DNA from: Mobula hypostoma | Taxonomy: Eukaryota | NCBI RefSeq assembly: GCF_963921235.1 | Contig: NC_086097.1 | Coordinates: 69,814,001-69,878,000 of the forward strand | Length of the DNA stretch: 64,000 nt | Reading direction: 5' to 3' | Shown here: piece by piece, positions 11,037 through 55,300 of the stretch | How the letters are laid out: each line of letters opens with the position of its first letter | Position numbering within the stretch: the first letter of the stretch is position 1 | Made by a program: the position numbers and the translations under genes | Notes under the pieces: generated by a model | Told to the model about the DNA's origin: nothing | Database searches by the model: none | What the model saw: only the letters and a program-made list of their open reading frames with translations

Positions 11037-11298
11037 CAACACACATCAAAGTTGCTGGTGAATGCAGCAGGCCAGGCAGCATCTCTAGGAAGAGGTGCAG
11101 TCGACGTTTCGGGCCGAGACCCTTCGTCAGGACTAACTGAAGGAAGAGCTAGTAAGAGATAGTCCTGACAAAGGGTCTCGGCCCGAAACGTCGACTGTCC
11201 CTCTTCCTAGAGATGCTGCCTGGCCGGCTGCGTTCACCAGCAACTTTGATGTGTGTTGCTTGAATTTCCAGCATCTGCAGAATTCCTCATGTTCGCGC
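11037..11298 (+). mobile_element. Short Penelope-like fold-back insertion
   Basis: 99-bp inverted arms (11037-11135 / 11160-11258), 40-nt one-sided tail, TSD ATGTTACAAC (11027-11036 / 11299-11308); homologous to the ends of 38308-40623. Confidence 0.88.
11098..11135 (-). ncRNA. Minimal type I hammerhead ribozyme motif
   Basis: UAGUC-CUGACGA-A-GGGUCUCGGCCC-GAAAC-GUC^GACUG; stems I and II pair. Confidence 0.75.
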
Positions 11299-12299
11299 AT
11301 GTTACAACTGTGTGTTTTGTCTTACTGATTCAAGTAGACAAGAGAAAATCATTGCTATCCTTTAAGCAAATGCTGATTAATCCTTTGCAGCCAATATTTA
11401 TTCTATTCTACCATGGCTGAGTAGTTCAATTTGCTTTTGAAATCAATGCTGTTTGTGTGGTTTTATTGCACACCAAAGATTTAATATCTACCAGTGACTA
11501 TAATTCAGGATAGTCTATTGGCATTGAATTGCTTTGGGCTGTCCTAAAGTTATGAATATTGCTTTGGATACAAATTATATCTGGTATTCATTTGCTGCTG
11601 AATCTCCACGTTGTATGGGGATTATCTGCAAAATCGACACTTCAGTACATCATAGAATAAAAGGATTAATTTTTGTGTCAACTGTTAATCTTTCATTCTC
11701 TTCCATCCCTTTCGACAATAAAATCTGTCTGAGGATACAGTTGATAATGCGTTTATCAACATGTGTTCATTTAGAAGATTTTACTATAGCAGTTGAAAGT
11801 ATAAAATTCATAATTTGGTGATTGATGGATTAATAACTAGGTCTTTAATTTGAAATGAGTGGAATTTATTTGCATGAAGATATTAGGAATGCACTTATCC
11901 TTTATAATGGCATTTTGATTTGTATTTCAGCAAAGTTATCAGTGAATACCAAAAATTGTAAAAGTTTTAATAACTTGTTTTGCAAAATCTATTATCAGAT
12001 GGTGAAATATACATCAATGATTGATGCTGAACCTTTGATTTTTATTTTCTTGTATTGCAAGAGTATGGTAAAGTCATACCTGCAAGTCCTGGGTATGTAA
12101 AATTGAAGTACTTAGAAGATATCAGAACTGTTCATACTTTGTGTAGATAAATAAGATTAACATAGATGGTATCATGTTGTGTTGAAAAGAACCATTTTGG
12201 TTCTGTGTGATTCTTTGCTGCCAAGGACTGTTTGTGTTTCAGATGCTCCAATGTGACATGGGGCTGGATTGTATAAGACAAGGAAATTAAGATCTTAGG

Positions 12300-12520
12300 A
12301 TCACAAAACTACTAACTCTCAAGCCCCCACTGAAACTAATCCTAAACTTAATCCCATCAATTTCTCCAGATTCTGCCACTCACTGAGGCAGATCATAGTG
12401 GCGAATTAGCTTACATCGTGCATTTTTAGAAAGTGGCCGGAAAGTAGAGGAAACCCATTTAGCCACAAGAAGATTGTACCAACTCCACACAGCATGGTAG
12501 ATTATAATTGAGCCTGAGTC
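12300..12520 (-). mobile_element. Degenerate V-SINE-like remnant
   Basis: 'gtggccggaaagtagaggaaacccat...acaagaagattgtaccaactccacacag' resembles the reverse V-SINE body. Confidence 0.4.
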
Positions 12521-12974
12521 ACTGGAGCTGGTAGCTGTAAAAATGAAATATAGAATCAAGGATGAAATCACAGTTAATTTTTTTCACGTTTTTCCAGTGG
12601 GTGCTGACTGCTTCTTTGTCCTTGATAATTTTTCCTTTTGGCTTTGACTGGGTGTACCCTTGGCTCCTTAAGTTGTTAGTTGTCGTGACAGTGCTGAATA
12701 ATCTTTGCATGCAATGGACCTCATCGCTCTTTCCACCCACCATCAGTTCTAGGGGTCACAGTTTGAGACATCAAAGACAAGAACCATTGCATTTGTGGTC
12801 AGTAAGCTTCTGGCTCTCATGGAGATTTGTCTCAGCCCAATCTTGACGTTTTCTAGTAGAGAAGTAAGAGTCTCTACAATGGACATCAAGCAATCTATAT
12901 GTCCATTCTGTGGCTCTTCTAGATTGTGGGTTGTCATATTGCATGTGAGGTGGCATTTGAGAAGACATTTCTTT

Positions 12975-15900
12975 CTTTCTTTTTCAATTTTTTTATTAGT
13001 TTCATAAAATATAAACATAACATAGCAATAATACAAAATTGTTGGAGATACATCGTTATACTTAAAATGAGTAATTATAAAACCAAATAGTATAAATTGA
13101 CAAAACTCCCAATCATGTAGGATAACAATGAATAATACAGGACAAAAAAAAAACTGGAGAAAAAACATGAAAAAGAAAAAAAAATAGGAAAAAAACAAAA
13201 CCCACCCCCCCAAAAAAAGTAAACTAAACAGAATTAGTCAACTAAACTAAAAAGACTTGGGCAATTCTGACAACTTAAAAATGGAAAAGAAGAAAACCTT
13301 AGTGTTGACGACTCCATTCCTCTCAACCAACAGTACAGCGAAGTAAAATAAGTTTGGAAATGGTCAAATTACATAATATGAAAATGCTGAATAAATGGCC
13401 TCCAAGTTTTTTCAAATTTAATGGCAGGGTCATAAACCCACACCTCTAATTTTTTCCAAATTCAAATACAACATAGTTTGTGAAAACCAGTGAAATACAG
13501 TAGGAGGGTTAATCTCTTTCCAATTCAGCAAAATAGATCTTCTAGCCATTAAAGTAAGAAATGCAATCATCCAGCATGCTGAAGAAGTTAAATGATTTGA
13601 GTCTATCATTGGTAATCCAAAAATAGCAGTAATTGGGTGAGGTTGTAAGTCTATTCAAAACCATTGAAATAATATCAAAAATATCTTTCCAATATTTTTC
13701 CAACAAAGGACATGACCAAAACATGTGAGTTAAAGAAGCTATCTCGCAATGACATCTGTCACATATTGGATTAATATAAGAATAATAACAAGATAGTTTA
13801 TCTTTGGACATATGAGCCCTGTGCACTACTTTAAACTGTATCAACACATGTTTAGCACATAAAGAGGATGAATTAATCAATTGAAGGATTTTTTCCCATT
13901 TTTCAATCGGTATAATAATCTTAAGTTCTCTTTCCCAACCATTTTTAATTTTATTAGAAACATCAGGACATAAATTCATAATTATGTTATAAATAATTGC
14001 TACAACACTTTTCTGAGAGAGATTTAGATCTAAAATTTTTTCCAAAGTATCCATTGGATATGAGTGTGGAAAATTAGGAGAAGCAGTAATTAAAAAGTTT
14101 CTAATCTGTAGGTATCTAAAAAAGTGAGATCTGGGTAAATTATATTTATTAGAAAGTTGATCAAAAGACATGAAACAATTATCCAAAAATAAATCACGAA
14201 AACGTACTATACCTTTGGTTTTCCAATCAAAGTAAGCTTGATCTACAGTGGAAGGTTGAAAAAGGAAATTAGATATAATAGGACTTGCTAAAATAAATTG
14301 ATTGAACCCAAAAAATCTTCGGAATTGAAACCATATACGTAAAGTATGCTTAACTATTGGATTATTCATTTGTTTATACAATTTAGAAGAAATAAAAGGA
14401 AGCGAAGTTCCTAAAACCGAACCCAAAAAAGACCCTTGTAATGAATTACATTCAAGATTTACCCAATGTGGATTTAAAGATACATCCAGATCTCGTAACC
14501 AAAATTTTAAGTGTTGAATATTAATTGCCCAATAATAAAATCTAAAATTCGGGAGGGTGAGCCCCCCCTCCCTCTTTTTTAGGTTTCTGTAAATACCTTT
14601 TACCTAGCCTAGGATTTTTGTTCTGCCATATTTATGAGGAAATTTTTGAATCAACATTATCGAAAAAAGATTTTGGGATAAAAATTGGAACCGATTGAAA
14701 TACATATAGAAATTTAGGCAAAATAATCATCTTAATAGCATTAATCTGATCAATCAAAGACAAAGAAATTGGTGACCATTTAGTAAACAAAAGTTTAATC
14801 TGATCAATTAAAGGTAAAAAATTAGCTTTAAATAAGTCTTTATACTTTTTCGTAATTATTATCCCTAAATATATAAATGAGTCAGTAACCAATTTAAATG
14901 GTAAACATCCATAAATAGATACCTGCTTACTTAGGGGAAATAATTCACTCTTATTAAGATCCAATTTGTAGCCAGAAAAATTACTAAATTGAGCCAACAA
15001 AGCTCGAATAGCAGGAATTGACTTCTCCGGATTAGAGATATATAATAACAAATCATTTGCATATAGTGATAATTTATGTATTTCGTTTCCGCGAGTAATA
15101 CCAAAAATATTGGGCGAGTCACGGATAGCAGTTGCTAAAGGTTCAAGGGCGATATTAAATAGTAAAGGACTAAGAGGGTATCCTTGCCTAGTACCACGAA
15201 AAAGACGAAAAAAGGGAGATCTTTGATTATTAGTACAAACCGAAGCTACTGGGGAATAATATAACAATTTAATCCAAGATATAAATGTCAAACTAAAATT
15301 AAATTTCTCAAGCACACTAAATAAATAAGGCCATTCAACTCTGTCAAAGGCTTTCTCAGCATCTAATGAGATAATACATTCCAGGGTAATAAGTGAAGGA
15401 GTATAAACAATATTCATTAACCTCCTAATATTAAAGGATGAATAACAATTTTTAATAAATTCAGTTTGGTCCGTAGATATAATTTGAGGTATTACCTTCT
15501 CTAACCCAGTTGCTAAAATTTTTGAAAAAATTCTTGAATCTACATTCAAAAGAGATATCGGTCTGTATGATGCATAATCAGTAGAATCTTTATTCTTTTT
15601 AAGAATTAAGGAAATAGAGGCTTCATAAAATGATTGTGGTAATTTACCTAAACTGATTGCTTCTTTGAATATTCTAGACAACCACGGAGAGAGAATAGAG
15701 GAAAAGGATTTTAAAAAATTCCACTGTAAACCCGTCCGGACCGGGTGCTTTACCAGAATTCAATGATGAGATTGCAGTTATTATTTCTTCCTCTGTAATA
15801 GGAGTTTCTAATGATAAGCAATCTTCGGGTGATAATTTCGGAAAATTCAGTTTACTTAAAAAATCATGGTGTTAAAATCATGAGGAAACTCAGAGTGATA

Positions 15901-18900
15901 TAAAGAGGTATAAAATTCTTGAAAGGTTTTGTTTATCCCATCATGATCAACTGTCAAAGTATCATCGTGTTTGCGAATCTTAGTAATTTGATGTTTAACT
16001 GAAGCAAATTTCAATTGATTAGCCAATAATTTACCTGATTTACCACTATGAATATAAAAATCACTTCTAGTTCTCATTAACTGATTTTCAATCGAGGATG
16101 TTAATAGTAAGCTATGTTCCAATTGAAGTTCAACTCTGTGTTTGTACAGCTCCTTACTGGGAGAAATAGCGTATTTTTTTTTTATCAATTTCTTTTATCA
16201 AGCAACAAGAGTATTTCATTCTTAGCACGTTTTTTCAAACCAGCCGAATAGGAAATAATCTGACCACAGATATAAGCTTTAAAAACGTCCCAAACTGTTC
16301 GATTGGAAACTTCTTCCGTAGTATTAATTGAAAAGAAGAAATCAATCTGTCCGTTTTTTAACTTGAGAAAGTCCAAGTCTTGAAGCCAAATAGGGTTAAA
16401 TCGCCATTGTCTATTACGACAAGAAGTATCCATTAACTTGATACATTGGAGCATGATCTGAAATGGTGATAATGTCATAATTACAATCAATTACAGGTGG
16501 GATTAATCGAGAGTCAATAAAAAAATAGTCAATTCGAGAATAAGAACGATGAACATGTGAAAAGAACGAGAATTCTTTATCCTCTGGGTGTAGAAATCTC
16601 CAAATTTCTGAAATCCCAGAATCAAACATAAAAGAGTTAATAAGAGTAGCCGACTTATTCGGTAAAGCCGGACTACCTATGGATCTGTCCAACATGGGAT
16701 TCAAACATAAATTACAGTCACCGCCCATTATCAACATATACTCGTTTAAGTTAGGAAAGGAAGTGAATATGTGTTTAAAAAATTCAGGATAATCCACATT
16801 CGGAGCATAAACATTAACCATAGCAACCTTTTTATTAAAAAGTAACCCAGTGATTAACAAAAATCTGCCATTAGGATCTGAGGTAATGTCTTGATGAATA
16901 AATGTAATTGAGGGATCGATAAAAATTGAAACGCCATTAATTTTGGCTTGGGAATTTGAGTGGTATTGATGGTCTTTCCAGAACTTAAAGAAGCGTTGAT
17001 TATCCTCTTTCCTTACATGAGTTTCTTGTGCAAAAATAATATGAGTATTCGGTCTTTGGAATACTTTGAAGATCTTTTTCCGTTTTATTGGATGGTTTAA
17101 ACCATTTGTATTCCAAGAGACAAAATTAAAGATGTGAGCCATAATTTAAGATGAACCCTTTGATGAGTGAAGGGTTAACCATAATGTGAACCCATGAAAC
17201 CGGAAGAGGAATACATTATCAGAGAGGAACCGGAAACCCCGACACTGCAGACATCTTTGTAGTACTAAATCAGCCCAATAGAAAAAATTAAAAAAGAAAG
17301 AGTCCCCCACCCACCATCCCCAAGAACCCCGAACTAAGCCAGAAAAGGCTGAAGAAAGAACTAACTAATACTAAATCTAACCCCATTTCTGCAGGAGGCA
17401 ACTCCAAAGATGTATGTTATATAGATGACCCCCTGAAAACTGATATGTATTAAAAAAAATTAAACACTATACTAAAATAATCTACATAGTATAATTACTG
17501 ATACATAAATAAGAAAAAGTTAGTATCAATATGTATGATTAGTTAATTATAAATGAGAGTAAATAAAATATCGCTTCCAAAATAAAAGGGGATTATGGGA
17601 AGAAGAAACATAAGAACATGACGTCCCAAAAAGAACACAGGAGATTATGCAAAAAGAAAAACAAATCGCCATTTTAATTGTACAGAAACAAAAATAAAGA
17701 ACATATAACTGAAAATGATCGTCAGATCAAATTGTTAGTAATAATATCAGAAAACAAAAAGTTAAGGAAAAATTAACTCAAAGAAAGTAACGTTATTCGC
17801 AAGAAATAACTATTATATAAGTTGTAAAGTAATAACTATAGTAGTAAGCGCAAAACAAAAATCTTGAGCTTATAAAAAATCTTCATCGTACGGTAGTAGA
17901 AGGTTTATTTTTTTTAAAAAAAAACACCAGAAAAAAAAGCTGATACTGAGAGCACAGAACATTAATTAAAGGGTGGTGTCTGCATCACATGGGTAGTTAT
18001 CATCCAAAGAGCTTCAAGCGGCAGTTATGGAATGGAAGACGCGAGGAGATCCATCAGGAAGAGAAATTCTTAGACGTGCAGGATACAATAATGCCGGTTT
18101 GAGATTTTTTTGATAACATTCTGACATCAGAGGTTTAAAAGTCAGTCGCTCCTTCTTCACTTCGGGACTGTAATCTTGAACTATCCTGAAGGAATGCTGG
18201 CGATACTTGATCATCCCTTGCCGACGAGCAGTCTGGAGAAGCCTTTAACATTAACATAATGGAAACAAAGAATAATTGGTCTCAGTTTGGATACAGCCGA
18301 TGTTTACTTTGGCCCCGGTATACGGTGGGCACGGTCAAGTAATGGAGGCTCGTTGGGAAAAACTGAACTGAACGTATCCTTTAAAAGTTGAGCAAAGAAT
18401 ATTGAAGGGTCTCCATCCTCAACATCCTCAGGTAGACCAATTATATGTAAGTTTTGTCTTCTCGGTCGATTTTCAAGAGCGATGACTTTGGATTTAAAAT
18501 GTTGCAGTTGTTTAATAGTCGAAGCTAAATTCTGCTCTAAGTTCTCAACTTTTGAATCCATCTTCTGAGATTTAATATCCAGTTCAGAGATTTTACTTCG
18601 GTGTTTTTGAACTTCACAATCCAGGGATTTCAGAGATTCCGTGATTGATTTTAAATCTTCATTAAGGCTTTGACGTTGTTGTTCCAATTTATCAGATAAA
18701 CTTTCAGATAGATTTTGACGTTGTTCCTCGAACTTTTCCTCTAGAAACTTCATCATAACCTCATAAGATAGCTCCGTTTGTTTAGAGTCACCTTTTCTTT
18801 TTCCTCCGTTCCCGTCAGAATCTTTCCCATCTTTGGCTTTGGATCTTGTACTCATTTCTTTAAATTCCAGAGTTGCAATTTAAGAAAAAATCAGTAAGAT

Positions 18901-19024
18901 AGAATAAATCTTCTGGTGTGGATAAAAATTGATTAGATCAAGGAGATCATAGGTTAAAAAAGATAACGGGAGTGGAGCGAAGCCAGAAGCGACTTCACTC
19001 CATGAGCGCTCCCTGCAGAATCCA
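12975..19024 (-). mobile_element. Full-length, inactivated L1-clade LINE (L1-a)
   Basis: ORF1 18855 to about 18014 (LENRPRRQNL coiled-coil/RRM type, disrupted). ORF2 17142 to about 13400 in frameshifted pieces: APE domain SWNTNGLN..YSRID, RT with QGYPLSP and YAND, CDRC..H..C knuckle. TSD ACATTTCTTT at 12965-12974 / 19025-19034. Confidence 0.92.
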
Positions 19025-19029
19025 ACATT

Positions 19030-19750
19030 TCTTTTTCAATATTTTTATTAATCACTTGCATAGACGAGTACAAAATACATTATGATATTATGGAAATAGA
19101 AACAAGATCGAAATGCCCCATAACTATGTATAGTAAATTAACCATAATATTGAAAAGGTATATTTTATTCTAATCTAAAGCAAAATCAAAACCCCATAAC
19201 AAAACAAAAAAAAGAGGAAAGAAACAGCTGTTTGGTTAAAAGAAAAGAAAAAAATCTGACCTCTAGTCGTAAATTCAACATATAATAACCATCATCATTG
19301 CTGAACAAGTCAAATTGTGAAAGTAGTTCCAAAAAGGTCCCCATAATGTGAAAAAATCTTGTCTAGGTATAGAAATAGAACACCTAATGTTCTCTAGATT
19401 TAAACATGACATAACATCAATCAACCAATGAGCATGAGTAGGCGGAGCGGCATCTTTCCATTTAAGCAACAGAACTCTTCTGGCAAAAAGAGAAATCAAA
19501 GCCAAAATATGCAAATTATTCGGCTTAAGAATAAAATCATTTCCACCAACAATGCCAAACAAGGCAGTCAGAAGATTGGGTTTAAAGTTTACTTTAGAAA
19601 GCTCTGAGAAAATTTGAAATACTTCTTTCCAAACTTTATCAAGCCGCAGGCAGGACCAAAGGATATGAATTAGAGAGGCCTCTTCGACATTACACCTATT
19701 ACAGTATAGAGAAAAATCTGAGTAAAAATGAGAGAGCTTATCTTTAGTGA
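19030..19750 (-). mobile_element. 5'-truncated L1 3' fragment (a third subfamily)
   Basis: ORF 19275-19562 is an L1 ORF2 C-terminus (LLKWK..PP..W..LE..R); A-rich 3' UTR and AATAAA on the minus strand. Confidence 0.8.
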
Positions 19751-20170: not shown

Positions 20171-20384
20171 TGCGATAGAGATTTTGTAAGGCCGACTCTA
20201 CCGGGGGGTGGGGGGGGGGAGCCATAATGTTCGGGTCTCTAATACTGAGTGCTGTGGCCCAGAAAGCAGGCTCATCGGGCTTGGGTGATGTAAAATATCT
20301 CGTAAGTTACTCTCTCTCTGTTCTTATTTGTTCATTCCTCATCTGTTAAGGCACAGTAGTTTAGTGAACATTGCTCTAGGGGCA

Positions 20385-20623
20385 AACAACAGGAATTCTG
20401 CAGATGCTGGAAATTCAAGCAACATACATCAAAGTTGCTGGTGAACGCAGCAGGCCAAGCAGCATCTATAGGAAGAGGCGCAGTCGACGTTTCAGGCCGA
20501 GACCCTTCGTCAGGACTAACTGAAGGAAGTCTCCTGAGGAAGGGTCTCGGCCTGAAACGTCGACTGCGCCTCTTCCTATAGATGCTGCTTGACCTGCTGC
20601 ATTCACCAGCAACTTTGATGTAT
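20385..20623 (-). mobile_element. Short Penelope-like fold-back insertion
   Basis: 98-bp arms (20418-20515 / 20532-20629), tail on the left, TSD ATTGCTC(T/C)AGGGGCA (20370-20384 / 20624-20638). Confidence 0.87.
20481..20518 (-). ncRNA. Minimal type I hammerhead ribozyme motif
   Basis: UAGUC-CUGACGA-AGGGUCUCGGCCU-GAAAC-GUC^GACUG, intact. Confidence 0.75.
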
Positions 20624-21817
20624 ATTGCTCCAGGGGCAGTGTTTTATACTGTATATGGGATGTGAGAAGTCTGGGAGTTGCAGCTCATGAGAGAATGTAT
20701 TAGGAACTGGAATTGCAGCTCCATGACCTTCGACTAATACGGGAGAGTGAGGAAATGATAGACAGGAGCTATAGGGAGGTAGTTACCCCTAGATTGCAGG
20801 AGCCAGATAACTGGGTGACCGTCAGGAGAAGCAGGGGAAATGCACCATCAGTGCAGAGTATATTTGTGGCCGTTCCCCTCAATAATAACAATTATGCAAC
20901 TTTAGGTACTGTTGAGAGGCACAACCTACTCGGGTGAGCCACAGCGACCAGGTCTCTGGCACTGACTCAGGCGCTGTGGCCCAGAAGAGCAGAGGTGAAG
21001 AGGACTAGTGCTGATAGCATATTCCTTAGAGGAACAGAGACAAGGTTCTGTGGGTGCGATCGAGACACCCCGATGGTATGTTGTCTTCCTGGTGCCAGGA
21101 TCAGGGATGTCTTGGATCGAGTCCATGGCATTCTCAAGGATAAGAGTGGGCAGCCAGAAATCTTGGTACATATTGGCACCAACGACATAGGTAGACAAGG
21201 TGAGGAGGTCTTGAAGAGAGATTTTAGGAAGCTAGGTAGAAAGCTGAGAAACAGAACCTCCAGGGTATTAATCTCTGGATTGCTGTGTGTGCCGTGTGCC
21301 ATGTGCCAGTGAGGTTAAGAATAGGATGATTTGGTAGGTGACTGCATGACTGAGGAACTGGTGCAAGGGGCAGGGGCTCAAATTTATGGATCAATGAGAT
21401 CTCTTCTTGGGAAGGTATGACTTGCGCAGAAGAAATGGGTTACACATGAACCAGAGGGGTCCAATATCCTTGCTGGCGGGTTCGCTGGAGTTATTCAGGT
21501 GGGTTTAAACTAATTTGACAATGTGATGGGAACCGGAGTGATAGTGCAGAAGATGAGGAAGTTGGTTGACAAACAAAAGCAATATGTGGTGAGATTCATA
21601 GCAAGGAGAGGTTGGTGATAGGGCAAAACAGGATGAGTTGTGACGTAAAAGGCGGACAAAATCAAAAAGGGTGAATACAGAACTGAAGGTGTTATATTTG
21701 AATGCATGCAGTATATGGAATAAGGTAGATGAACTTGTGGCACAGTAATAGGTTGGCATGTATGATGATGTAGGCATCAGTGAATCATGGTTGAAAAAAT
21801 ATCATAGCTGGGAGCTT

Positions 21818-38180: not shown

Positions 38181-38399
38181 TTTCTCTGGGAGTGTGGCTA
38201 GTTTTGAAGCACTAGCAATACATATGGGATGTTGCTTTGCTCTGTCACCTTTTCTGTATTCTGTATAGTTTGCTGTTTCTTGATAAAAATGTAAAATGAA
38301 GCAAATTACAGGAATTCTGCAGATGCTGGAATTTCAAGCAACACACATAAAAGTTGCTGGTGAACGCAGCAGGCCAGGCAGCATCTCTAGGAAGAGGTG

Positions 38400-38437
38400 C
38401 AGTCGACGTTTCAGGCCGAGACCCTTCGTCAGGACTA
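38400..38437 (-). ncRNA. Minimal type I hammerhead ribozyme motif in the PLE 3' pLTR
   Basis: Intact CUGACGA / GAAAC / GUC core with stems I and II. Confidence 0.78.
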
Positions 38438-40525
38438 ACTGAAGGAAGAGTGAGTAAGGGATTTGAAAGTTGGAGGGGGAAGGGGGAGATCCAAAATGAT
38501 AGGAGAAGACAGGAGGGGGGAGGGATGGAGCCAAGAGCTGGACAGGTGATAGACAAAAGGGATACGAGAGGATCATGGGACAGGAGGTCCGGGAAGAAAG
38601 ACGGGGGGGGGGGTGGACCCAGAGGATGGGCAAGGGGTATATTCAGAGGGACAGGGGGAGAAAAAGGAGAGTGAGAGAAAGAATGTGTGAATAAAAATAA
38701 GTAACAGATGGGGTACCAGGGGGAGGTGGGGCATTAGCGGAAGTTAGAGAAGTCGATGTTCATGCCATTAGGTTGGAGGCTACCCGGACGGAATATAAGG
38801 TGTTGTTCCTCCAACCTGAGTGTGGCTTCATCTTTACAGTAGAGGAGGCCGTGGATAGACATGTCAGAATGGGAATGGGATGTGGAATTAAAATGTGTGG
38901 CCACTGGGAGATCCTGCCTTCCCCGGCGGACAGAGCGCAGGTGTTCAACAAAGTGGTCTCCCAGTCTGCGTCGGGTCTCGCCAATATATAAAAGGCCACA
39001 TCGGAAGCACCGGACGCAGTATATCACCCCAGTCGACTCACAGTTGAAGTGTTGCCTCATCTGGAAGGACTGTTTGGGGCCCTGAATGGTGGTAAGGGAG
39101 GAAGTGTAAGGGCATGTGTAGCACTTGTTCCACTTACACGGATAAGTGCCAGGAGGGTGATCAGTGGGGAGGGATGGGGGGGACGAATGGACAAGGGAGT
39201 CACGTAGGGACCGATCCCTGCGGAATGCGGGGGGGGGGGGCGGGAGGGAAAGATGTGCTTAGTGGTGGGATCCCGTTGGAGGTGGCGGAAGTTACGGAGA
39301 ATAATATGTTGGACCCAGAGGTTGGTGGGGTGGTAGGTGAGGACCAGGGGAACCCTATTCCTAGTGGGGTGGCGGGAGGATGGAGTGAGAGCAGATGTAC
39401 GTGAAATGGGGGAGATGCGTTTAAGAGTAGAGTTGATAGTGGAGGAAGGGAAGCCCCTTTCTTTAAAAAAGGAAGACATCTCCCTCGTCCTAGAATGAAA
39501 AGCCTCATCCTGAGAGCAGATGCGGCGGAGACGGAGGAATTGCGAGAAGGGGATGGCATTTTTGCAAGAGACAGGGTGAGAAGAGGAATAGTCCAGATAG
39601 CTGTGAGAGTCAGTAGGCTTATAGTAGACATCAGTGGATAAGCTGTCTCCAGAGACAGAAAGATCTAGAAAGGGGAGGGAGGTGTCGGAAATGGACCAGG
39701 TAAACTTGAGGGCAGGGTGAAAGTTGGAGGCAAAGTTAATAAAGTCAACGAGCTCTGCATGCGTGCAGGAAGCAGTGCCAATGCAGTCGTCGATGTAGCG
39801 AAGGAAAAGTGGGGGACATACCAGAATAAGATACCGGAACAAGTGCTACACATGCCCTTACACTTCCTCCCTTACCACCATTCAGGGCCCCAAACAGTCC
39901 TTCCAGGTGAGGCAACACTTCGCCTGTGAGTTGGCTGGGGTGATATACTGCGTCCAGTGCTCCCGATGTGGCCTCTTATATATTGGCGAGACCTGACGCA
40001 GACTGGGAGACGGCTTTGCTGGACGCCTACGCTCTGTCCGCCAGAGAAAGCAGGATCTCCCAGTTGCCACACATTTTAATTCCACATCCCATTCCCATTC
40101 TGACATGTCTATCCACGGCCTCCTCTACTGTAAAGATGAAGCCACACTCAGGTTGGAGGAACAACACCTTATATTCCGTCTGGGTAGCCTCCAACCTGAT
40201 GGCATGAACATCAACTTCTCTAACTTCCGCTAATGCCCCACCACCCCCTCGTACCCCATCTGTTACTTATTTTTATACACACATTCTTTCTCTCACTCTC
40301 CTTTTTCTCCCTCTGTCCCTCTGAATATACCCCTTGCCCATCCTCTGGGTTCCCCCCCCCCCGTCTTTCTTCCCGGACCTCCTGTCCCATGATCCTCTCG
40401 TATCCCTTTTGCCTATCACCTGTCCAGTTCTTGGCTCCATCCCTCCCCCTCCTGTCTTCTCCTATCATTTTGGATCTCCCCCTCCCCCTCCAACTTTCAA
40501 ATCCCTTACTCACTCTTCCTTCAGT

Positions 40526-40563
40526 TAGTCCTGACGAAGGGTCTCGGCCTGAAACGTCGACTG
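40526..40563 (+). ncRNA. Minimal type I hammerhead ribozyme motif, sense to STRN3 pre-mRNA
   Basis: TAGTC CTGACGA AGGGTCTCGGCCT GAAAC GTC^GACTG; predicted cut after 40558. Confidence 0.78.
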
Positions 40564-40746
40564 CACCTCTTCCTAGAGATGCTGCCTGGCCTGCTGCGTT
40601 CACCAGCAACTTTTATGTGTGTTAAATGAAGCAAATTGTCATCCTTGATGGTGAAAATGTAATTCTACTTAGCGCTTGTACTTTTCTCCAATTGTTGTGT
40701 GACTGTTCCAGTTTTCTTTCTTATTTGCCAGTTTTACCCTTTCACA

Positions 40747-41097: not shown

Positions 41098-41149
41098 AAT
41101 CCTGAAACTCTTATAATCTAGTAGTCTTGCTGTGCTCTCCTAGAATTTA

Positions 41150-42985: not shown

Positions 42986-45900
42986 CAAGGTTTCACTGCT
43001 AATGTAATGGCCTCTGTTATGTTTCACTGCAAAGGTAATAGTTTCTCTGTAGCAGCAATGTTTGGGTTATGACTAGAGGTAAGGGGGGCTTTGGAATGTA
43101 TGCTACCCAATTAGCGGGATGTTGTTCTTTCTGGTGGGTCTAGGAGCAGGGAATTGGCAGTCTTTTGCCAGGGAGAGATGAGGAGAGAATACATGAATGG
43201 AGGGAGTTGGTAGACTGCTGGATGGAGTGGGTTCCGAGGGTCGGCTACACTCGAGGTCGATGGGGAGCAAATGAACAGACCATGAGCTCCAACGTTGCGC
43301 ATTAGACTGTTTCATGAGAATGGGCCCTTTTTTTTGTTTCCTTACTAACCATACAGTCAAATTAAGAGTTATAAAGCTCAGTCGTTTAATCGCATATTGT
43401 GTACTGTTTGTTATTTCATGGTACTGATTTATAACAGGGGACACATCACACAGCATCCACCCAAACAAAATTTCTTAAGTTTGGCCGGGTCGAGGGCTGT
43501 CTTCCCCTAGATTAAGCCGCTAGCTGAAGCGAGAGTTACAATTGTGGGGGTATCGTTCAGGATTGATTTCGTTGGATGCTGTGTGATTACCCTGAGTATT
43601 GTACCAGTGGGGTAGATATTCGTACTCCGGATGAATTGTTAATTCACCCGTTAAGTACTGTTAAAGTTGCGATTGCGGGGCGGAGGTTTGATAAGATGGC
43701 AGGCGCAGCTCTCATTTTAATGCAGACCAGTGCTAACGTAGTGGTAGCTGGGGGCGGAGATTTCAAAGACAGGGTTCTATCGTTTCTGAGGAGGTAGGGG
43801 AAGGAGTGGTCAGATTTGGAATGTCTAATTAGTCCCCGTCCCCCAGTGAAGAGTGAGAATTCTGAGTTAATATCTGCCCTTACCTCGCTGGCAAATAAAT
43901 GGAAAAATGCTCAGGTTCAAAGTCCCTGCTCTGGTAGGCTCCGCCTATTCTCTGATATAATGCCCACCCCTAAAGGGGAAGAGTGCTGTGATGATATAAA
44001 GCAACAGAGATTGGTTGAGAGTTTGCGTAGGCGGGCTGCTGACGCTGTGAGAGCCGTCACGTTGCGGTATCCCGTAGCGACTGCTGTCAATTACATGCAA
44101 GTACTGGACAAGCTTTTGGCCCGACGGGAAGCCCAATGGAGCTCATGGAGGGGTTTCAGAACATGCGTCAGGAGAAAGGGGAGAAGCTTTTTGCTTATCT
44201 TTTTTGGCAAGAGAGACAACTAAATTGCTTGCAGCGCAGAGGGGTCATTCAAGCAGCTGAGGTGGATCAGTTAAGAATGGACCAGATAGCCAGGGGCGCC
44301 CAGTCCCAGGAACTGATTGCTTGGGGTCTCTGACAATCTCATAAGACGCTCCCCCTCCATTTTTTGTTGAGCTGATCAGAGAGGTACAGGAAGAGGTGAA
44401 CATATTGGAGGCGTGGGAGGCCTCCGTCAGCAGGGTACAGTCTTCGGTAGTGGTCCCCTGCGGTGGTGACCACAGATAGCCTACCCCGGGGAGCAGTAGA
44501 GGAGATTGTGGCAGAATTGAGTATGGAGATGTTTCGGCTGTTATCAGTAGGTGTGACCCCCCACCACCCAAAATATGATGGAGCTTGTGTGGGGGAGGTT
44601 GCTGGCAGCAGGTGTCCTGTGAGAAGGAGAATGAGACCCCGGGCACCTAAGCAGAGAGAGACATTGGGAAAACTTAGAGGAGACCCAGTGAGGAAACGGC
44701 CTGGTGTCTCTGGGGGAACACATTATCAGCAATGTACCAAGGAACCCCTGAAAGCGAAATACCTTATTCCTGAAGGCTTAGTGGGACCATGCTCCAGTGT
44801 GTCGCTATGGCTAGAGGGTATTCATGCTTAAGCCATACTCGACAGCAGGTCATAGGTCACAATATTGTACTGTTCATTTTACACCCGATACCTGAAGCAT
44901 TAATATTGACCCCATTCAGGGCACTGGAGATCTGGGGACTTGGTGCTAGTGATTATCCATACAACGGTTATTTGTCAGTGAAGTTGGAGTTCTTGGAGGC
45001 CAATGTAGGAGTGTCTGAGATCCTTGATACATTGCTGCTGGTTTGTCCGGACCCTGTTGAGAAGAGCGGCGTTTCAATTCTGGTGGGGACCAATACCCCT
45101 CTTGTGAGGAGGTTCATGGGGGCCTGCAAGGAGAAGGCTGGTGAGAGCTTTCTGGGAACATTGTCCGTGCACCCGGTGTTTCGAGCTGCTTTTGAGGAAG
45201 TGCGTGGCAGCATTGGGCCGGATACTGAATTTAGATGAGGGACTGTGTGGTTCACCCAGTCGAAGCCAGTGGTGGTACGGCCCGGGGAAGTAGCAAGAGT
45301 GATGGGGACCCCCACATTTCCTGGAGTGCCTGAGGGCGAAGCTCTCTTAGTGGACGCTCTGGAAGACCACGAGAGGGAGTCGGGATTTCCTGTTGAGGTA
45401 CTGGTGAGGCCTGAATTGCAGAGGCCCTCAGTTGTGCAGGCGAGCAGGATGGCAGTAATTGTTAGGAATGCTACGAAGAGGGAGATCACCTTCAAGCGGA
45501 GGATGCCCCTAGCGCATCTGTTCCCGGTGACGGTAATGTCTAGTGTTCCCATGAGACAAGCTGGGGAGAAACTATTGGAAAAGGGGGGGAAAGTTGACCA
45601 CTGAGTTACTCAACTTCAGGGACTCCCTGGTTGGAAGAGGAGGTTGGTAGAGAAGATGTTGATGCTGGAAGGTGTCTTTTCCACTGATGGGTTTGATATG
45701 GGTTGTTCCAAGAGCACTTGTCACACTATCCGGGTGACCAAGGACACCCCGTTTAGAGAACGATCATGGAGGCTGGCCCCTGCAGACATGGAGGATGTCC
45801 GGCAGCATTTGTGTAAGTTGAAGGAAGCTGGGGTCATCACTGAGTCCCGAAGCCCCTATGTGTCCCTAATAGTAGTAGCCCAAGAGAAGAATGGGAAGGT

Positions 45901-47560
45901 ATGGATGTGTGTGGACTATAGGACTCTGAACGGGCGCACCGTTCCTGACCAGTATACGGTCCCGAGGATTGAAGATGTGCTGGCCTGCCTGAGTGGTGCG
46001 AAGTGGTTCAGAGTGCTGGACTTCAGAAGTGGATGTTACCAGATACCCATGAGGGAGACTGACAAAGGGAAGATGGCATTTATCTGTTCCCTGAGATTTT
46101 TCCAGTTTGAAAGGATGCCCCAGGGCATATCTGGAGCCCCTGCTACCATCCAGTGGGTCATGGAGAAGATGGTGGGGGAATATGAATTTGCTTGAGGTAT
46201 TGGTGTATTGGGATGACCTCATAGTGTTTGTATCCATCTTGGTAGAACATGAAGCGAGGCTGCTGAAGGTGCTGGGCTGCCTGAAAGCTGAAGGGTTAAA
46301 ACTTTCCCTGGACAAATGCCAGTTCTGCCAAATGTCTGTTAGCTATGTTGGGCACATAATCTCATGGGATGAAGTAGCTGCAGATCCAGCTAAGATAGAG
46401 GCGGTGACCACTTGGCCAAGACCTCAGACTTTGAGCGCACTGCGCTCGTTCCTCAGTTTCTGTGGTTACTATCGAAAGTTTGTGAAAGGCTATGCGAAAG
46501 TGAGTTACCCATTGAATCAGCTTCTGTGCGGTTACCCTCCCTTGAAGAAGAAAGGGAGGGGGAAAAAAGGACAGGAGGGTGGAGAGTATCTTAGCCCATT
46601 AGATCCCTTTGGACCGAGGCGGGATACAAATTGTGAGGAGGCCTTTCAGTTGCTGAAGGAACTGCTGACCAAGGCGCCGGTACTGGCTTTTGCAGACCCC
46701 CGATTGCTGTATGTACTGAACACGGATGCCAACTGAGAAGGCTTAAGGGGCGTCCTGTATCAGAACTGAGGCACCAGGTTGAGACCTGTTGAGTTTGTCA
46801 GCCGGAGTCTGTCGCCCTCTGAGAAAAGCTATCCCATGCACAAGTTGGAATTTCTGGTGCTGAAATGGGCAGTGGTGGATAAGCTGAGTGCCTACCTCTA
46901 TGGGGCCAAGTTTGAGGTGAGGATGGACAACAACCCCCTAACTCATATCCTGACCTTGGTGAAACTGGATGCCACAAGCCATTGGTGGTTGGCGGTGTTG
47001 TCTGCCTATGATTTCAACCTGAAGTACCGGCTGGGAAGCAGGACCATTGATGCTGATGCTTTGTCCCGACGGGCCCATGAGGGGACAGGTCAGGGACGAG
47101 AAGTGGGAGAGCATTCCTGCCCTGGGGATGAATGCCATGTGTCAGTTTGCCTTCACCGTGAAGGCAGAGAGACAGGAGGGGCAGGATCGAGCAGTGGATC
47201 AATTGGGGGCTTCTGATGATACTATTCCCCAAGTTCACTGTAACCTGACTGCTCTGAAGACAAATCAGCTGCCGGAATTGAGTTCTGGGGAAGTGGCAGC
47301 TGCTCAGCGAGACAACCTGGACAGCAGTATCATTTGGTCAGCGGTCGAAAAGGGAGACATGGCTCAGGCTGAGAAGACGAAATGCGGTAGTGTCTCCATT
47401 ACTGAGAGAATGGCCATGGTTGGGGTTGCCAGAGGTTAGGCAACTCCCCGGTTCCTGTGGATTGGAAGAGGAGGTTGATAGAGAAGATGTTGAAGCTGGA
47501 AAGTTAGGTCGGCCCCCACCCCTGAGAGGGATACTGATTCCGAGGACGAGGACCTGGATG

Positions 47561-48856
47561 TTCAAAGGTTCAATTTAATGTCAAAAAAATGTATACAATA
47601 TACATCCTGAAATGCTATTTCTTTGCAAACATCTACAAAAACAGAACGAAAGAATGAACGAAAAATAAACATAACCCCAAAGTCACCCCAGTTCCCCTCC
47701 CTCCTGCGTGTAAGTGGCAGCAAGCAACAATCCCCCTCCCACCACCAACAAAAAAAAAAGCAAGCATCGGTATCACCACCGAGTCTTCAGCTTGAGCAAA
47801 GCAATAGCAAAGACACAGACTTGCAGTGACCCCAAAGACTTTGCGTTACACCCAGCATTCGACAACCGCAGATTCTCTCTCTCTCTCATAAGGGAGGTGT
47901 CTCCATTTTTTTTCCCCCAGCGAGTGGGGAGACATAACAAACAACTCGCTGGTTTACGATGTTAAAAGTCCGCCAAGTCACTTTTTTTGAGCTCTGTGCC
48001 TGAAAACCGCAAAGATTCTGGGTCTTCGGGCCCACCGCAGATATCCCGACTCTGCTGATGACTCACGGGTCTCCTGCCGTGACACCGACCCTCAATCCAC
48101 CCATCTGCAGAACCCCGAGATCTTAGGCATCCGAATTGGAGCTGAATTCTCAGGCCAAATCCTTGGTGTGCCGAACAACGGCCAGTCCTGAAACCCCGAG
48201 AATGGGTCCCATTCCCGCAAAAAACCAAAATCAGCGTGTATCTCCAGGTCAGGGTCTTCAAAAGAACCCTGAAAGGGAAAAATAAAGATACGAGGGGTGG
48301 TTGATAAGTTCATGGCCTAAGGTAGAAGGAGTCAATTTTAGAAAACCTAGCACATTTATTTTTCGACATAGTCCCTTCCTACATTTATACACTTAGTCCA
48401 GCGGTCGTGGAGCATACGGATCTAGGACCTCCAGAAAATGTCCACAGCAGGGGTGATTGATAGGTTTGTGGCCTAAGGTAGAAGGAGATGAGTTATTAAC
48501 TTCAAACTTTCTGCATAATCACTCAAAGAGTTGAGCTGCATGTGCATGTAAAGAGAGCCGTATAACTCATCTCCTTCTACCTTAGACCACAAACTTATCA
48601 ATCACCCCTGCTATGGGCACTTTCTGGAGATCCAAGATCCGTATGCTCCACGACCACTGGACTAAGTGTGTAAATGTAGGAGGGGACCATATTGAAAAAT
48701 AATGTGTTAGGCTTTCTAAAATTGACTCCTCCTACCCTCAGCCACGAACTTATCAATCACCCCTTGTATTAAAGATGAAAGTAGAACTGTTTCCGAAGAT
48801 GCAAGCAAAGGAGTGGCTGTTTAGCGCCATCTTAACTTCGCTCTACCTCCCGATTG
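47561..48856 (-). mobile_element. Non-coding, non-autonomous retroposon inserted in the Gypsy element
   Basis: AAGATGGCGC near the 5' end; ATTAAA plus a TTGAAC-type tail like the Rex tails in this window; no protein motif. Confidence 0.55.
48291..48766. mobile_element. Palindromic mariner-type MITE
   Basis: TA-flanked CGAGGGGTG..GATAAGTT termini; about 206-bp inverted arms; internal second TIR pair. Confidence 0.88.
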
Positions 48857-50204
48857 GTCATATATGCTGCTTTTTGCTAACTCCCCATTAATGGAGGAAA
48901 AGACTTCCAGCCCTTCTCCCACTGAGTCAGGTGAAGTGGCGGGCGGGGTGCTATCTGTGGACAGCCTGGTTTGTAGCGGGGCTTGGCCACAGGACGGAGG
49001 GGTGCGAGTTGCAGGTGGCACGAGTGATAGGTCAGGGGAGGCCGCGCCAGGTAGACCGGAAGTATCCCCAGTAGTGTCTGAACCTGAAGGGTTAGGTGAG
49101 GGGGTTTCAGAGAGTTAGAAGACCACCAGATAGGATGGCCTGCGTAGCACCGGCGGAACAGAGTGTGACCCCTACTGTTTTGGGGAGCTGTGTCACTGCC
49201 TGTTACACCTGGATTGGCCTTTGTGTTTTGCAGGGAGGGTTGGCAAATTATCTCAACGTCATGAAGACTTGACTAAATTTGGTGGGGGGAAGAGTGTAAT
49301 GCGCTTTAAGGTTTCACTGCTAATGTAATGGGCTCCCTGTAATGTTTCATTGCTAAGGTAATGGTTTCTCTGTAGCAGCAATATTTGGGTTATGACTAGA
49401 GATAACAGGGCTTTGGAATGTATGCTAGCCAATGAGCAGGATGATGTTCTTTCTTGTGGGCCTGAGAGCAGGGATTTGGCGGTCTTTTGCCAGGGAGAGA
49501 TGAAGAGAAGAAGACTTGAACAGAGATAGCTGGTAGACCACCGGACGGAGTGAGCTTGGACCAAGGGTCCGAGGGTCGGCTACGCTCAGAAGAAGTCAAC
49601 AGGAAACCAGTGGACTGAACCGTGAGCTCCAAAGTTGCGCATTAGACTGTTTCATGAGAATGGGCCCTTTTTTTTTTGTTTCTTTACTAACCATATAGTC
49701 AAATTAAGAATTATAAAGCTCAATTGTTTAATCACATATTGTGTACTGTTTGTTATTTCATGGTACTGATTTGTAAAAGGGAACACATTGTGCAGCATCC
49801 ACCCAAACAAGATTTCTTAAGTTTGGCCGGGCCGAGCGCTGTCCTCCCTTAGGTTAAGCTGCTAGCTGAACCAAGAGTTACATTACATATAGTATATATA
49901 TTTACTGCAATTTACAGTTTTTATTTTGTATTGCAACGTACTGCTGCCATACAACAATTTTCACAATGTATGCCAGTGAAATTAAACCTAATTCTGATTC
50001 TGTTTCTAACTTTTTTTCTCTTCCATTATCCTTCTAATATCTGTTGTTTCCTTCAAGAAGCATTTATTTATTTAGCATTCTGTTATCAGGACTGCCTTCC
50101 TATATCCTGGTGTCTTTCCTTGTTCTTTCATTATATCTCCGTAACCCACTTATTCATTAATGTCTTTTCTTTAGCAATATTGCCTCTGTCATATTCGATC
50201 AAAA

Positions 50205-50470
50205 ATAATCAACCTGAGACATGAACTCTGTTTTTCCTTCTCCATAGTTGCTGTCCATCCTGCTGAGTATTTCCAGCATCTTAATTCTTTTTGAAATGTC
50301 TAAGATCTGCTGTTTTATGTTTCAAGTTATTGCCAATTTAATCCAGATGAAGGATCTCAAACCAAATGATCGACTGTCCGTTTCCCTCCACAGATAATGC
50401 CTGGCCTACTGAGTTCCTCCAGCAGATTGTTCTTCGCTCTAGATTCCAGCATCTGCAATTTCATGTGTCT
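50205..50470 (+). mobile_element. Two decayed PLE-type 3' end remnants
   Basis: '..ctgctgagtatttccagcatc' and 'gatgaaggatctc..tcgactgtcc..gcctggcctactgagttcctccagca..ttccagcatctgca' resemble the pLTR and tail. Confidence 0.5.
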
Positions 50471-51520: not shown

Positions 51521-51940
51521 AAATGGAATGAATTGGCGAGGGAGCAAAAATGTTTACGGACGTGTGGGAGGCAGAGCGTGAACTAATATGTCAGTGGCTC
51601 AGAGTATATGTAAGGTGCTCTCATTGGCTGACTGAATATTTACTGTAATGGCGACTGTTCTTTAGCATTTTTAAGTGTTGGTTAGAATTAATTTTTGTCA
51701 TTTAGAAAAATTTCAATAAAGAATTGAATAACCACGTTATAATCAATTGGGTAACATTATGCATGGTAGGAGGGTATGGGTGAAGTCATTATGAATTAAC
51801 TGCAGACAGGTGACAAACATAGAGTGTGAGCCAATAAATTGGATATCAGGAGGTTTATAAATATCCAAAACTGGACAGTGCTATCAGAGCAATTATCCTT
51901 CTTAGGATACTTTTGTTCCTTAAGGCTAACTGGTCTTATA

Positions 51941-52462
51941 CAGGTTTCCCCCGCTATCCAAAAGTAGAGTGTTTCTATGAAACTGTTTGTAAGCTGAAGT
52001 GGCGTAAAGTGAAGAAGCAGTTACCATTAATTTATATCAGAAAAATTTTTGAGCGTTCCCAGACGCAAAAAATAACCTACCAAATCATACCAAATAGCAC
52101 ATAAAACCTAAAATAACACTAACATATAGTAAAAGCAGGAATCATATCATGAATACACAGCCTATATAAAGTAGAAATAATGTATGTACAGTGTAGTTTC
52201 ACTTACCAGAATTGGGAAGATTTAGCCAAAACCGATTTGTAGAAAAAAATCGGCACGTACACGCATGTGCACACACCTGCCCACGCAAGGCTTTACGGTC
52301 ATGGTAGTCTTGGGGTAAACACAAGTTTAAAGTGGGCGCCTTTTTTCGTAAAAGTGAAAATCCTCTTTGGATTTCTTTCGGTTAGCGAAAACAGGTTCTA
52401 ATGTAGGTCTTTCATAAAAGTGAAGTGGCGAAAGCGAACTTTCGTAAAGCGGGGGACACCTG
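51941..52462 (-). mobile_element. Tigger-derived MITE related to 22560-24071
   Basis: Same termini (CAGGTTTCCCC / GGGGACACCTG) and shared subterminal sequence; TA on the left. Confidence 0.85.
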
Positions 52463-54443
52463 CATTGGTATGTAAATCTTCAAAATAGGTCAATAACATC
52501 TTAGCTGAAAATACTTAGTAATAGAACATTGAATGTGGTGCTACCACTGGTGAGGTAGCATCTATCTGCTTCAAGCCAATTGTACTCAGAAAATTAGAGT
52601 TCTCTTGTGTAAGTAAAATAACTATTGCAAGTTTCAACCAACTTTATCAGTGTTCCTTAAAGAAATTACAGATGGTCATTCAACAGCTCCTGTAATTTTT
52701 ACTTGTAAGATGCACTTCTCTGTGAGATTATTGCTTTTCACTTCCAGGATGAATGTTGGAAGAACTAGGCAAAAAGCATTAATTTAGAACAGTTCTGCTT
52801 ATTATGAACTAGATATGTCATCTTTGCATATTTAGATTCCATTTTTCTAAAAATATATCTGCACCAGTAGGATTGCTGTGGCATTTGGCACAGTGTGTAA
52901 TTTAAGGCTGAAATAGTATGCATGCATTGCACAAATATTGACTCTGTCGTGCTCTGGTGGGGTTAGTTGGAATTGAAGAGCTAACAGTTCTGCATCTTGA
53001 ACTTCAAACCCCATAGATGAAGCCCAGAAGTAGGAGGAGGAAGTGGCAGGTTACACAACTCCAGTTGGAGGCAAGTAAGGCTGTTTAGAATCTGGTCCTT
53101 GATATAAGCCTGACACTGCTTATGTCAATGGCAGTATCAGAGGGGCCAGTGTGGAGGGAGGTACAATAAAGTATGGGGCTTGACAGGGAATATAGAATCA
53201 AGGCAAGGGCTGAATGGGAGGAGACCAAGGTCTCATAGCTGAGTAGCTAACTCTGTTATGCTCATGAACTAGAGTATAATGTTAGCTGTGATTCATCCTA
53301 TTTGCTAACATAGTAGTTTTGGCTTAGAATTTCTCAGCTACATATCCTTCTTAATTAAATGATATGAAGTGAACGATCATATGTTTATGAATTTATTTTA
53401 CTGCCATCCTCCACCCCCCCCGAATTTGAGATCCGCTTGCTCTACTTTTTTAAAAAAACAGTTTTTGTTTTTATTCCCATCTGACATTTTGTTTGCTTTG
53501 TAATTATTTATTTCGTATAGTACATCTGGAAACCGCTTTCTCTTTTATTATTCATATATTATTCCTCTTAGTTTAGCCTAGAGGATTTGTTCTATCTTAA
53601 CCATTTATTCTGTTCTGTCACATTTCCCTCGTCTAATTGTGAAGAGGCAGATCTAATGTGTGCTTTGTGTTGTATTATATAAACCTTGCCTCTGCATCAT
53701 TTAATTCCATTCGTTGACCCTGGGTGGCTGACTTCACTGTCACCCTCAGACTGATTTGCTGGTGCCATTGTTGACTGGCTGATTTGGCAAAGTGCTTAAG
53801 GATATTGTTACCAGATTTAGTACTTATCCATTAGCCAAATATTAGAGATTTGTGAACAATTGAAAACCAACAGCGGATGCAAATTTGTATGCAGCTGTAA
53901 TTGATAATGTTGTACTCCACTGCATTTTCTATTTCATTGTAATTATTTTTCTGGGTACTACCTCTCATCACAAAGTAGAGACCTACATATGAGGAAGAGT
54001 ACCCAATATTACCTTAAAGTAATAAGGGAAGCTATCACATGCATCCCTGAGACATGGCTAAAGGATGCATGTCTGTGGGAGCTGAATGTCCAAGGATACA
54101 CGGTGTATCGGAAGGATAGGCAGTTAGGCAGAGGGGGTGGCGTGGCTTTATTGGTAAGAAATGATACTGAATCATTAGAAGGAGGTGACATAGGATCGGA
54201 AGGTACAGAATCTTTATGGGTTGAGCTAAGAAATTGCAGGGGTAAAAGGACCCTGATAGCAGTTATATGCAGGCCTCCTAACAGCTGCAGTGATGTGGAC
54301 TACAAATTACAACAGGAAATAGAAAAGGCTTGTCAAGAAGGCCAGTGTTAGGATAATTGTAGGGGATTTTAACATGCGAGTGGATTGGGAAAATCAGGTT
54401 GGTACTGGGTCTCAAGAGAGAGAATTGGTAGAAAGTCTACGAG

Positions 54444-54615
54444 CAACACACATAAAAGTTGCTGGTGAACGTAGCAGGCCAGGCAGCATCTCTAGGAAGA
54501 AACGTCGACTGCACCTCTTCCTAGAGATGCTGCCTGGCCTGCTGCATTCACCAGCAACTTTTATGTGTGTTGCTTGAATTTCCAGCATCTGCAGAATTCC
54601 TGTTGTTTGCGTTTT
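54444..54615 (+). mobile_element. Short Penelope-like fold-back insertion, hammerhead truncated to GAAACGTC
   Basis: 59-bp arms (54442-54500 / 54516-54574), tail on the right, 15-bp TSD TAGAAAGTCTACGAG (54429-54443 / 54616-54630). Confidence 0.88.
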
Positions 54616-55124
54616 TAGAAAGTCTACGAGATGGCTTTTTAGAACAGCTTGTTGTTGAGCCCACAAGGAGATCGCCTGTACTGGATTGGGTATTGTGTAA
54701 TGAACCAGAGATGATTAGAGAGATTGAGGTGAAGGAACCCTGAGGAGGCAGTGATGATATCATGTTTGAGTTCACTGTGAAATTTGAGAAAGAGAAGCCG
54801 AAATCCGATGTGTCGGTGTTTCTGTGGAGTAAAGGAAATTACAGTGGCATGAGAGAGGAACTGGCCAAAGTTGACTGGAAAGGGACACTAGCGGGAAGGA
54901 CGGCAGAGCAGCAGTGGCTGGAGTTTATGCGAGAAGCGAGGAAGGTGCAAGACAGATATATTCCAAAAAAAGAAGAAATTTTCAGATGGAAAGAGGATGC
55001 AACTGTGACTGGCAAGAGAAGTCAAAGCCAAATTTAAAGCAAAGGAGAGCGCATACAAGGAAGCAAAAAATAGTGGGAAGACAGAGGATTGGGAAGTTTT
55101 TAAAAGCTTACAAAAGGAAACTAA

Positions 55125-55300
55125 AGCAACATACATCAAAGTTGCTGGTGAACGCAGCAGGCCAAGCAGCATCTATAGGAAGAGGCGCAGTCGACTGCGC
55201 CTCTTCCTATAGATGCTGCTTGGCCTGCTGCGTTCACCAGCAATTTTGATGTATGTTGCTTGAATTTCCAGCATCTGCAGAATTCCTGTTGTTTGCGTTT
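55125..55300 (+). mobile_element. Short Penelope-like fold-back insertion (spacerless palindrome)
   Basis: 69-bp arms (55124-55192 / 55193-55261, one mismatch), tail on the right, 13-bp TSD AAAAGGAAACTAA (55112-55124 / 55301-55313). Confidence 0.9.

Follow-up and report, generated by a model that had tools for sequence, protein, structure and literature searches.

Five insertions in the window, a stretch of 64,000 nt from Mobula hypostoma, are separate insertions of a Penelope-like retrotransposon (PLE) with a reverse transcriptase (RT), a cysteine linker and a GIY-YIG endonuclease. All five share one layout: a target site duplication (TSD), an inverted arm without a tail, a 5′-truncated copy, a tail of 32-43 nt and the second TSD. 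The layout was probably formed by reverse transcription primed from both nicked target strands, with two start sites lying 32-43 nt apart on the RNA.

The ten related arms, in five clusters, were located by comparing the window with itself, and the TSDs by a search for flanking repeats. The sample is five copies in one window. Element positions are counted from where the hammerhead is predicted to cut, with +1 as the first base after GTC. Insertion 1 (11027..11308, plus strand) lies between TSDs at 11027-11036 and 11299-11308; its tail-less inverted arm (11037-11160) spans -58 to +66 and its tailed arm (11160-11298, tail at 11259-11298) spans -33 to +106. Insertion 2 (20370..20638), which lies within a LINE-like frame, and insertion 3 (38294..40637) show the shared layout on the minus strand. 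In the former, the tailed arm (20385-20529, minus; tail at 20385-20423) and the tail-less arm (20532-20623, plus) are separated by 2 bases, and the TSDs are at 20370-20384 and 20624-20638; they differ by one mismatch and were completed by eye from the two exact 7-nt halves that the repeat search gave. In the latter, the TSDs are at 38294-38307 and 40624-40637, the tailed, 5′-truncated copy runs from 38308 to about 39835 (minus; tail at 38308-38339) and the tail-less arm from 39836 to 40623 (plus). Insertion 4 (54429..54630, plus), also within a LINE-like frame, has TSDs at 54429-54443 and 54616-54630, a tail-less arm at 54444-54500 (+10 to +66) and a tailed arm at 54499-54615 (-8 to +109), with a 2-nt overlap at the junction. 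Insertion 5 (55112..55313, plus) has TSDs at 55112-55124 and 55301-55313, and its tail-less (55125-55195) and tailed (55190-55300) arms meet in a palindrome (GTCGAC) whose midpoint is the cut predicted for the hammerhead.

The outer ends of the arms fall in two tight clusters, at +66, +62, +65, +66 and +68 for the tail-less arms of insertions 1 to 5, and at +106, +101, +97, +109 and +108 for the tailed arms. Each of the five insertions has exactly one tail (40, 39, 32, 43 and 40 nt, in the same order), and the TSDs measure 10, 15, 14, 15 and 13 bp. The initial annotation had described this architecture for all five copies, with an inverted arm that stops near one point and lacks a tail of 30-45 nt, and with TSDs of 10-15 bp; the arms, tails and TSDs read in the sequence agree with it in all five copies. 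The inner ends vary. They are at -58/-33 (tail-less/tailed) in the 11 kb copy, -30/-44 at 20 kb, +10/-8 at 54 kb and -3/-3 at 55 kb, and the 38 kb copy extends inward about 790/1530 bp. The overlaps at the junctions are 1, 0, 2 and 6 nt at 11, 20, 54 and 55 kb. Tail-less arms of 57, 71, 92, 124 and 788 bp are found across the five copies, and the inserts measure 172-2316 bp, three of them below 250 bp. When an insertion and one TSD are excised at 54, 55 or 20 kb, the LINE-like host sequence is restored with its reading frame open across the site, and at 54 kb the excised site aligns without gaps to a paralogue. Older related pieces at 50.2-50.5 kb are arranged as a direct tandem without an inverted arm.

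The coding content comes from the long copy at 38 kb, whose reading frame, broken once (near 39237-39240), specifies the end of a Penelope-type RT, then a CX4CX2C linker and finally a GIY-YIG endonuclease. The C-terminal part of the RT, with the YIDD motif, and the thumb occupy 39237..39815 (minus), and the linker and the endonuclease, which has an internal CxxC, occupy 38734..39237 (minus). The mirrored linker and GIY-YIG region at 39836-40233 on the plus strand bears a premature stop. The best protein matches are with proteins of rays and sharks, from Hypanus (about 74-75%, also over the RT segment), Rhincodon (71%) and Chiloscyllium (64%), followed by many RT plus GIY-YIG proteins of invertebrate type and 800-930 aa; the RT segment gives 55% with such proteins of 800 aa. 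The copy in the window is truncated and frame-broken, and its own Pfam match to GIY-YIG is weak (E 0.047), so the PLE arrangement of an RT followed by a C-terminal GIY-YIG in one ORF is read through alignment to the homologues of 800-930 aa. One of these (P0017; E to the window 1e-89) has Pfam matches to both RVT_1 (just under the cut-off) and GIY-YIG. Two cysteines are present between GIY and YIG, as in the CCHH motif (motif match VIYCVRCFRCGLLYIG), with histidines visible downstream. The linker, CKWNKCYTC, fits the pattern CX2-5CxxC that is also found in 31/39 long homologues; the Penelope/Poseidon clade is marked by having no cysteine linker. A full-length ORF in a partial tandem with direct pLTRs is absent from the window, and a search of the pLTR for the start of the ORF gave one 8-residue match among 39 N-termini (E 0.049). 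The RT end, the linker and the GIY-YIG support the PLE identity (RT plus GIY-YIG) given earlier to the family.

A scan with a minimal-hammerhead descriptor found four motifs, all of them in arms, against a mean of 0.02 per shuffle (100 shuffles). They are at 11099..11134 (minus, tail-less arm of insertion 1), 20482..20517 (minus, tailed arm of insertion 2), 38401..38436 (minus) and 40527..40562 (plus, tail-less arm of insertion 3). The motif at 38401..38436, of type I, consists of stem I (AGTC/GACT), CTGACGA, stem II and GAAA-CG-TC; it fits the consensus of PMC4209133, from which a cut is predicted between 38405 and 38404. Rfam gave nothing at gathering score in the window, and around one hammerhead it gave two unrelated matches at chance level. 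Free-energy folding found no significant structure and did not recover the hammerhead fold (z -0.16 to -1.21). The initial annotation had called the family hammerhead-associated. Intact minimal motifs in four arms bear this out for the family; the label does not suit the 54 kb and 55 kb insertions, which start inside the motif or at its end, and the whole motif is present in three of the five insertions.

How would such insertions arise? The endonuclease would nick the two target strands 10-15 bp apart. One target 3′ end would then prime at the distal site (+97 to +109) to give the tailed arm, and the other at the inner site (+62 to +68) to give the tail-less arm. Where precisely in a site synthesis begins would probably depend on partial base pairing between the RNA and the target end. 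The two cDNAs would stop at variable points and be joined head-to-head, often through an overlap of 1-6 nt, and the second strands would be filled in by repair. Cleavage by the ribozyme is probably not required. Priming from both strands accounts for outer ends that are fixed, inner ends that vary and overlaps that are short; it is the likeliest mechanism. It also agrees with the in vitro behaviour of an Anolis PLE (PMC11167929).

Fold-back has to be weighed against it: a cDNA primed at the tail end would stop, fold on itself, copy back to a fixed point before the tail and join the other target end. The geometry of four of the five copies is compatible with this as well, the tail-less arm starting within the tailed arm; the junctions at 54 and 55 kb have self-complementary overlaps of 2 and 6 nt, and the two arms share subfamily marks. 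The 11 kb copy speaks against it, its tail-less arm carrying 25 nt that are absent from the tailed arm. Since the tail-less arm there reaches -58 and the tailed arm only -33, neither could have been copied from the other. Nor does fold-back account for copying that ends at a fixed point, 32-43 nt before the primer is reached; two RT start sites do (PMC11167929). We consider it unlikely. Of the two-priming or fold-back mechanisms offered in the initial annotation, then, two-priming fits all five copies and simple fold-back fails at 11 kb.

Further evidence comes from the target. Over its first 8 bases, the target was compared with the template sequence past the priming point at each scorable end (seven of ten), and 32/56 positions matched. 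A simulated null gave 16.7 ± 3.6, and none of 20000 simulations reached 32; against a null that takes the best of seven registers (27.6 ± 2.8), the observed 32 is close to expectation (P 0.085). The tail-less ends by themselves match at 23/40 against 12.0 expected (P 0.00035), which suggests that they too were primed. The test was devised after the sequences had been viewed, and its seven ends leave aside three tailed ends without a known continuation. The short homology at the tail-less end could alternatively come from repair joining.

The matches bear on a mechanism put forward for rotifer Penelopes, in which self-priming takes place on antisense or double-stranded RNA. PMC3846280 so interprets palindromes at inverted junctions, and the 55 kb junction is palindromic. 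That paper itself describes the mechanism as untested, and such palindromes are also expected when two cDNAs are joined head-to-head. The 20 kb junction has no overlap, and at both ends the target matches the continuation of the sense strand, which fits a sense template. This reading appears as improbable to us as fold-back.

That whole hairpins were copied from pre-existing hairpin sources, or are MITE-like DNA transposons, is the least credible reading and very improbable. The short palindromic shape with TSDs would suit it, but the lengths of all five differ, the TSDs range from 10 to 15 bp, and the long copy encodes an RT and a GIY-YIG with no transposase. The junctions were not inherited from one hairpin source, because no two of the five inner junctions are alike, even between copies of one subfamily. 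A MITE-like DNA transposon would be of uniform length, with symmetric TIRs and a fixed TSD, in contrast to the inserts of 172-2316 bp, asymmetric ends and TSDs of 10-15 bp seen here.

Priming from both strands leaves the question of whether the two arms were copied from one RNA. Within copies the arms differ at 5/94, 4/94, 2/56 and 1/56 sites, and in the long copy by 29 substitutions in about 790. The initial annotation had taken the family to be recently active; arms that differ by up to about 5% do not bear this out, and the copies are not clearly young. The differences are decay after insertion and look unselected (15 non-synonymous and 3 synonymous in the coding part of the long copy); one CpG site has decayed in 3/10 arms. 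Variants mirrored in the two arms had been regarded as copy-specific. For the 11 kb copy this stands, its variant set, the third, being confined to one copy of the five. It does not stand at 55 kb: over +10 to +65 there are 0/56 differences between the tail-less arm of this copy and the tailed arm at 20 kb. The 55 kb variants occur in the 20 kb copy too and therefore mark a subfamily rather than a single copy. The 38 and 54 kb copies carry the second set of variants. Subfamily marks agree between both arms in 5/5 copies, and over 56 nt the mean number of differences is 1.6 within copies and 3.85 between copies, yet the pairing test is weak: 8/120 pairings of arms do as well as the true one. 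In the long copy no private variant is shared between arms at 13 testable sites (alignable sites where at least 85% of the aligned contigs disagree with the tailed arm); each time the other arm agrees with the majority, as judged from 26 listed rows in or next to the arm, with 601 further rows outside the listing. The earlier claim that both arms came from one template thus holds at the level of the subfamily and goes no further. One template for both arms is plausible.

The alternative is dual priming in which each subunit uses an RNA molecule of its own, or gene conversion at a later time; the marks that the arms have in common would then be those of the source subfamily rather than of one template. 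In its favour are the 0/13 shared private variants of the long copy and the patchy divergence of its arms: the outer 197 nt have no substitution (P 0.00015; 140 nt and P 0.0015 when three indels are counted), and 19 of the 29 substitutions lie in one 159-nt block (P below 0.001). Because of this patchiness, one template with even decay is insufficient; gene conversion could produce such a pattern, as could a second template or mutations that cluster. A-to-I editing of the template, as a source of the A-to-G cluster (about 7/29 substitutions, direction partly inferred), is unproven. Against two RNAs or conversion are the agreement of the subfamily marks in all five copies, the one tail per insertion, which is simpler with one RNA, and the unselected look of the differences, as decay after insertion predicts. 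We regard this alternative as unlikely, if marginally less so than fold-back.

A more specific form of priming from both strands may be entertained tentatively. A PLE dimer on one RNA may obligately prime both target strands, with one subunit per fixed site and the register set by pairing of the DNA end with the RNA, and the template may sometimes be ribozyme-cleaved RNA, both cDNAs then running off at the cut as at 55 kb. The predicted cut lies at the midpoint of the 55 kb junction, as though both cDNAs had run off a cleaved RNA. The site is also a 6-nt palindrome, and annealing accounts for the junction equally well.

This is a very abundant family. Four of 24 listed runs were aligned to the long arm: the contig sets gave 259,670 records in one run and 19,500 in the other, and the two raw-read runs, which are no test, gave 0 reads. 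Contig depth on the long arm is highest over the last 150 bp, and the contig joints there are all skips among the 15 of 712 listed (with 12 of 2877 loose ends listed), which speaks neither for nor against frequent inversion. The ratio of summed depth at a tail position to that at a core position is 0.62 in run X1 and 0.93 in run X11, depth being no copy number and edge loss lowering the tail, and the ratio is therefore set aside. The family motif had no match in viral contigs. Its 96 matches in metagenome contigs were rejected as chance, 1/96 aligning over at least 30 bp (35 bp, E 0.002). In the part of the literature covered, no paper dealt with this family in elasmobranchs, and dual priming or a match between target and template was not stated for PLEs in any.

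The layout has been published before as a PLE signature, with the TSD and the one-sided tail (PMC3846280, PMC8557442). In PMC3846280, which proposes self-priming on an antisense template, a typical insert ends in an inverted pLTR, with a 9-bp TSD, a 31-bp tail on one inverted pLTR and palindromes at junctions. PMC8557442 depicts the same layout for PLEs generally but calls the cycle, and so its formation, undefined. The present copies offer measures that discriminate between mechanisms, namely which arm is longer, the target-template match and a pile-up of junctions at the ribozyme cut, and the family, with about 260,000 matching contigs in one run, could supply enough cases to decide between dual priming and fold-back. 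If obligate priming by a dimer holds, this abundant ray and shark family would be a large natural record of PLE integration; if cleaved RNA served as template, the 55 kb junction would be the first indication from a genome that the hammerhead cleaves within the PLE cycle.

In LINE-1 twin priming, the second target strand primes on the RNA, and the products are joined head-to-head through short homology with the TSD kept; there is no overlap between the two parts, and the second site is variable. In the present copies, in contrast, the arms do overlap and that site is fixed. Among PLEs, the endonuclease-bearing (EN+) elements of PMC3846280 and PMC8557442 resemble the present family in the 5′-truncated copy with an adjacent inverted copy, the 30-40 bp tail at one end, the short overlaps or palindromes at the inverted junction and the hammerhead in the pLTR. 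They differ in their TSDs (8-10 bp vs. 10-15 bp here), and none of our five copies has a tandem upstream pLTR or a full ORF, three being below 250 bp. The linker and the GIY-YIG cysteines are marks of Neptune and Nematis PLEs, which likewise have a C-terminal GIY-YIG, a CX2-5CxxC linker and a pair of cysteines within the GIY-YIG (PMC8557442); the likeness is one of motifs. The predicted ribozyme resembles minimal PLE hammerheads in its helix I of 4-5 bp, the unpaired base before helix II and the palindromic minimal helix III, the differences being at the level of sequence only, and pairs of hammerheads 100-700 bp apart on opposite strands have already been reported in Schistosoma (PMC4209133).

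The closest experimental counterpart is Poseidon from Anolis carolinensis, PAc (PMC11167929). This PLE, predicted to be dimeric, cuts each of the two strands in vitro and extends them, with two start sites delimiting the tail; its hammerhead mutants insert normally, and the steps after priming are unvalidated there. As here, two ends lie a tail apart downstream of the hammerhead and both strands are used. Poseidon is without the cysteine linker that is present in our family. PAc reportedly starts at a site non-homologous to the cut DNA, whereas the targets here partly match the template, and in this match the present copies go beyond PMC11167929.

The two arms of the long copy of the Penelope-like element (PLE), that is, the inverted copies of its 3′ part within the insertion at 38294..40637 (minus strand), differ unevenly along their length. 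The outer 197 nt carry no inter-arm substitutions, and 19 of the 29 substitutions are clustered in 38902-39060 vs. 39907-40065, several of them being A-to-G in the sense strand.

The window holds further PLE-related pieces. At 50200-50470 (plus) lie two older fragments in direct tandem that resemble the pLTR, the hammerhead-bearing terminal-repeat region; the longer is about 69% identical to the family of five insertions, and no inverted arm was found for the pair. A weak pLTR-like alignment is present in the 52600 region (plus; score 44 vs. a shuffle maximum of 31).

Other repeats surround them. At 44300-47500 (minus), broken-up reading frames whose translations resemble RT and RNase H are presumably those of a Gypsy-type LTR retrotransposon. 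Two long, broken elements (13366-19300 and 28185-33600, minus), about 70% alike, we take to be LINE-1-like. Elsewhere there are many fragments that we take to be CR1/L2-like; three of these carry PLE insertions. A near-perfect 480 bp palindrome at 48288-48769 (arm identity 84%) did not match the PLE and is unrelated; we presume from its appearance a DNA-transposon MITE.

Immediately ahead of hammerhead helix I, the long copy has a pyrimidine tract followed by CAG (38440-38450, minus; 40513-40523, plus), which by its sequence looks like a 3′ splice site. A similar tract is seen at 38436 in loose ends of other contigs (among the 12 of 2877 listed). Donor-like motifs occur in the long copy at 39137 and 39041; no spliced form of the PLE was seen. 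A 3′ splice site of this kind is reported for the Penelope intron of D. virilis (PMC4209133), which the tract in the long copy resembles.
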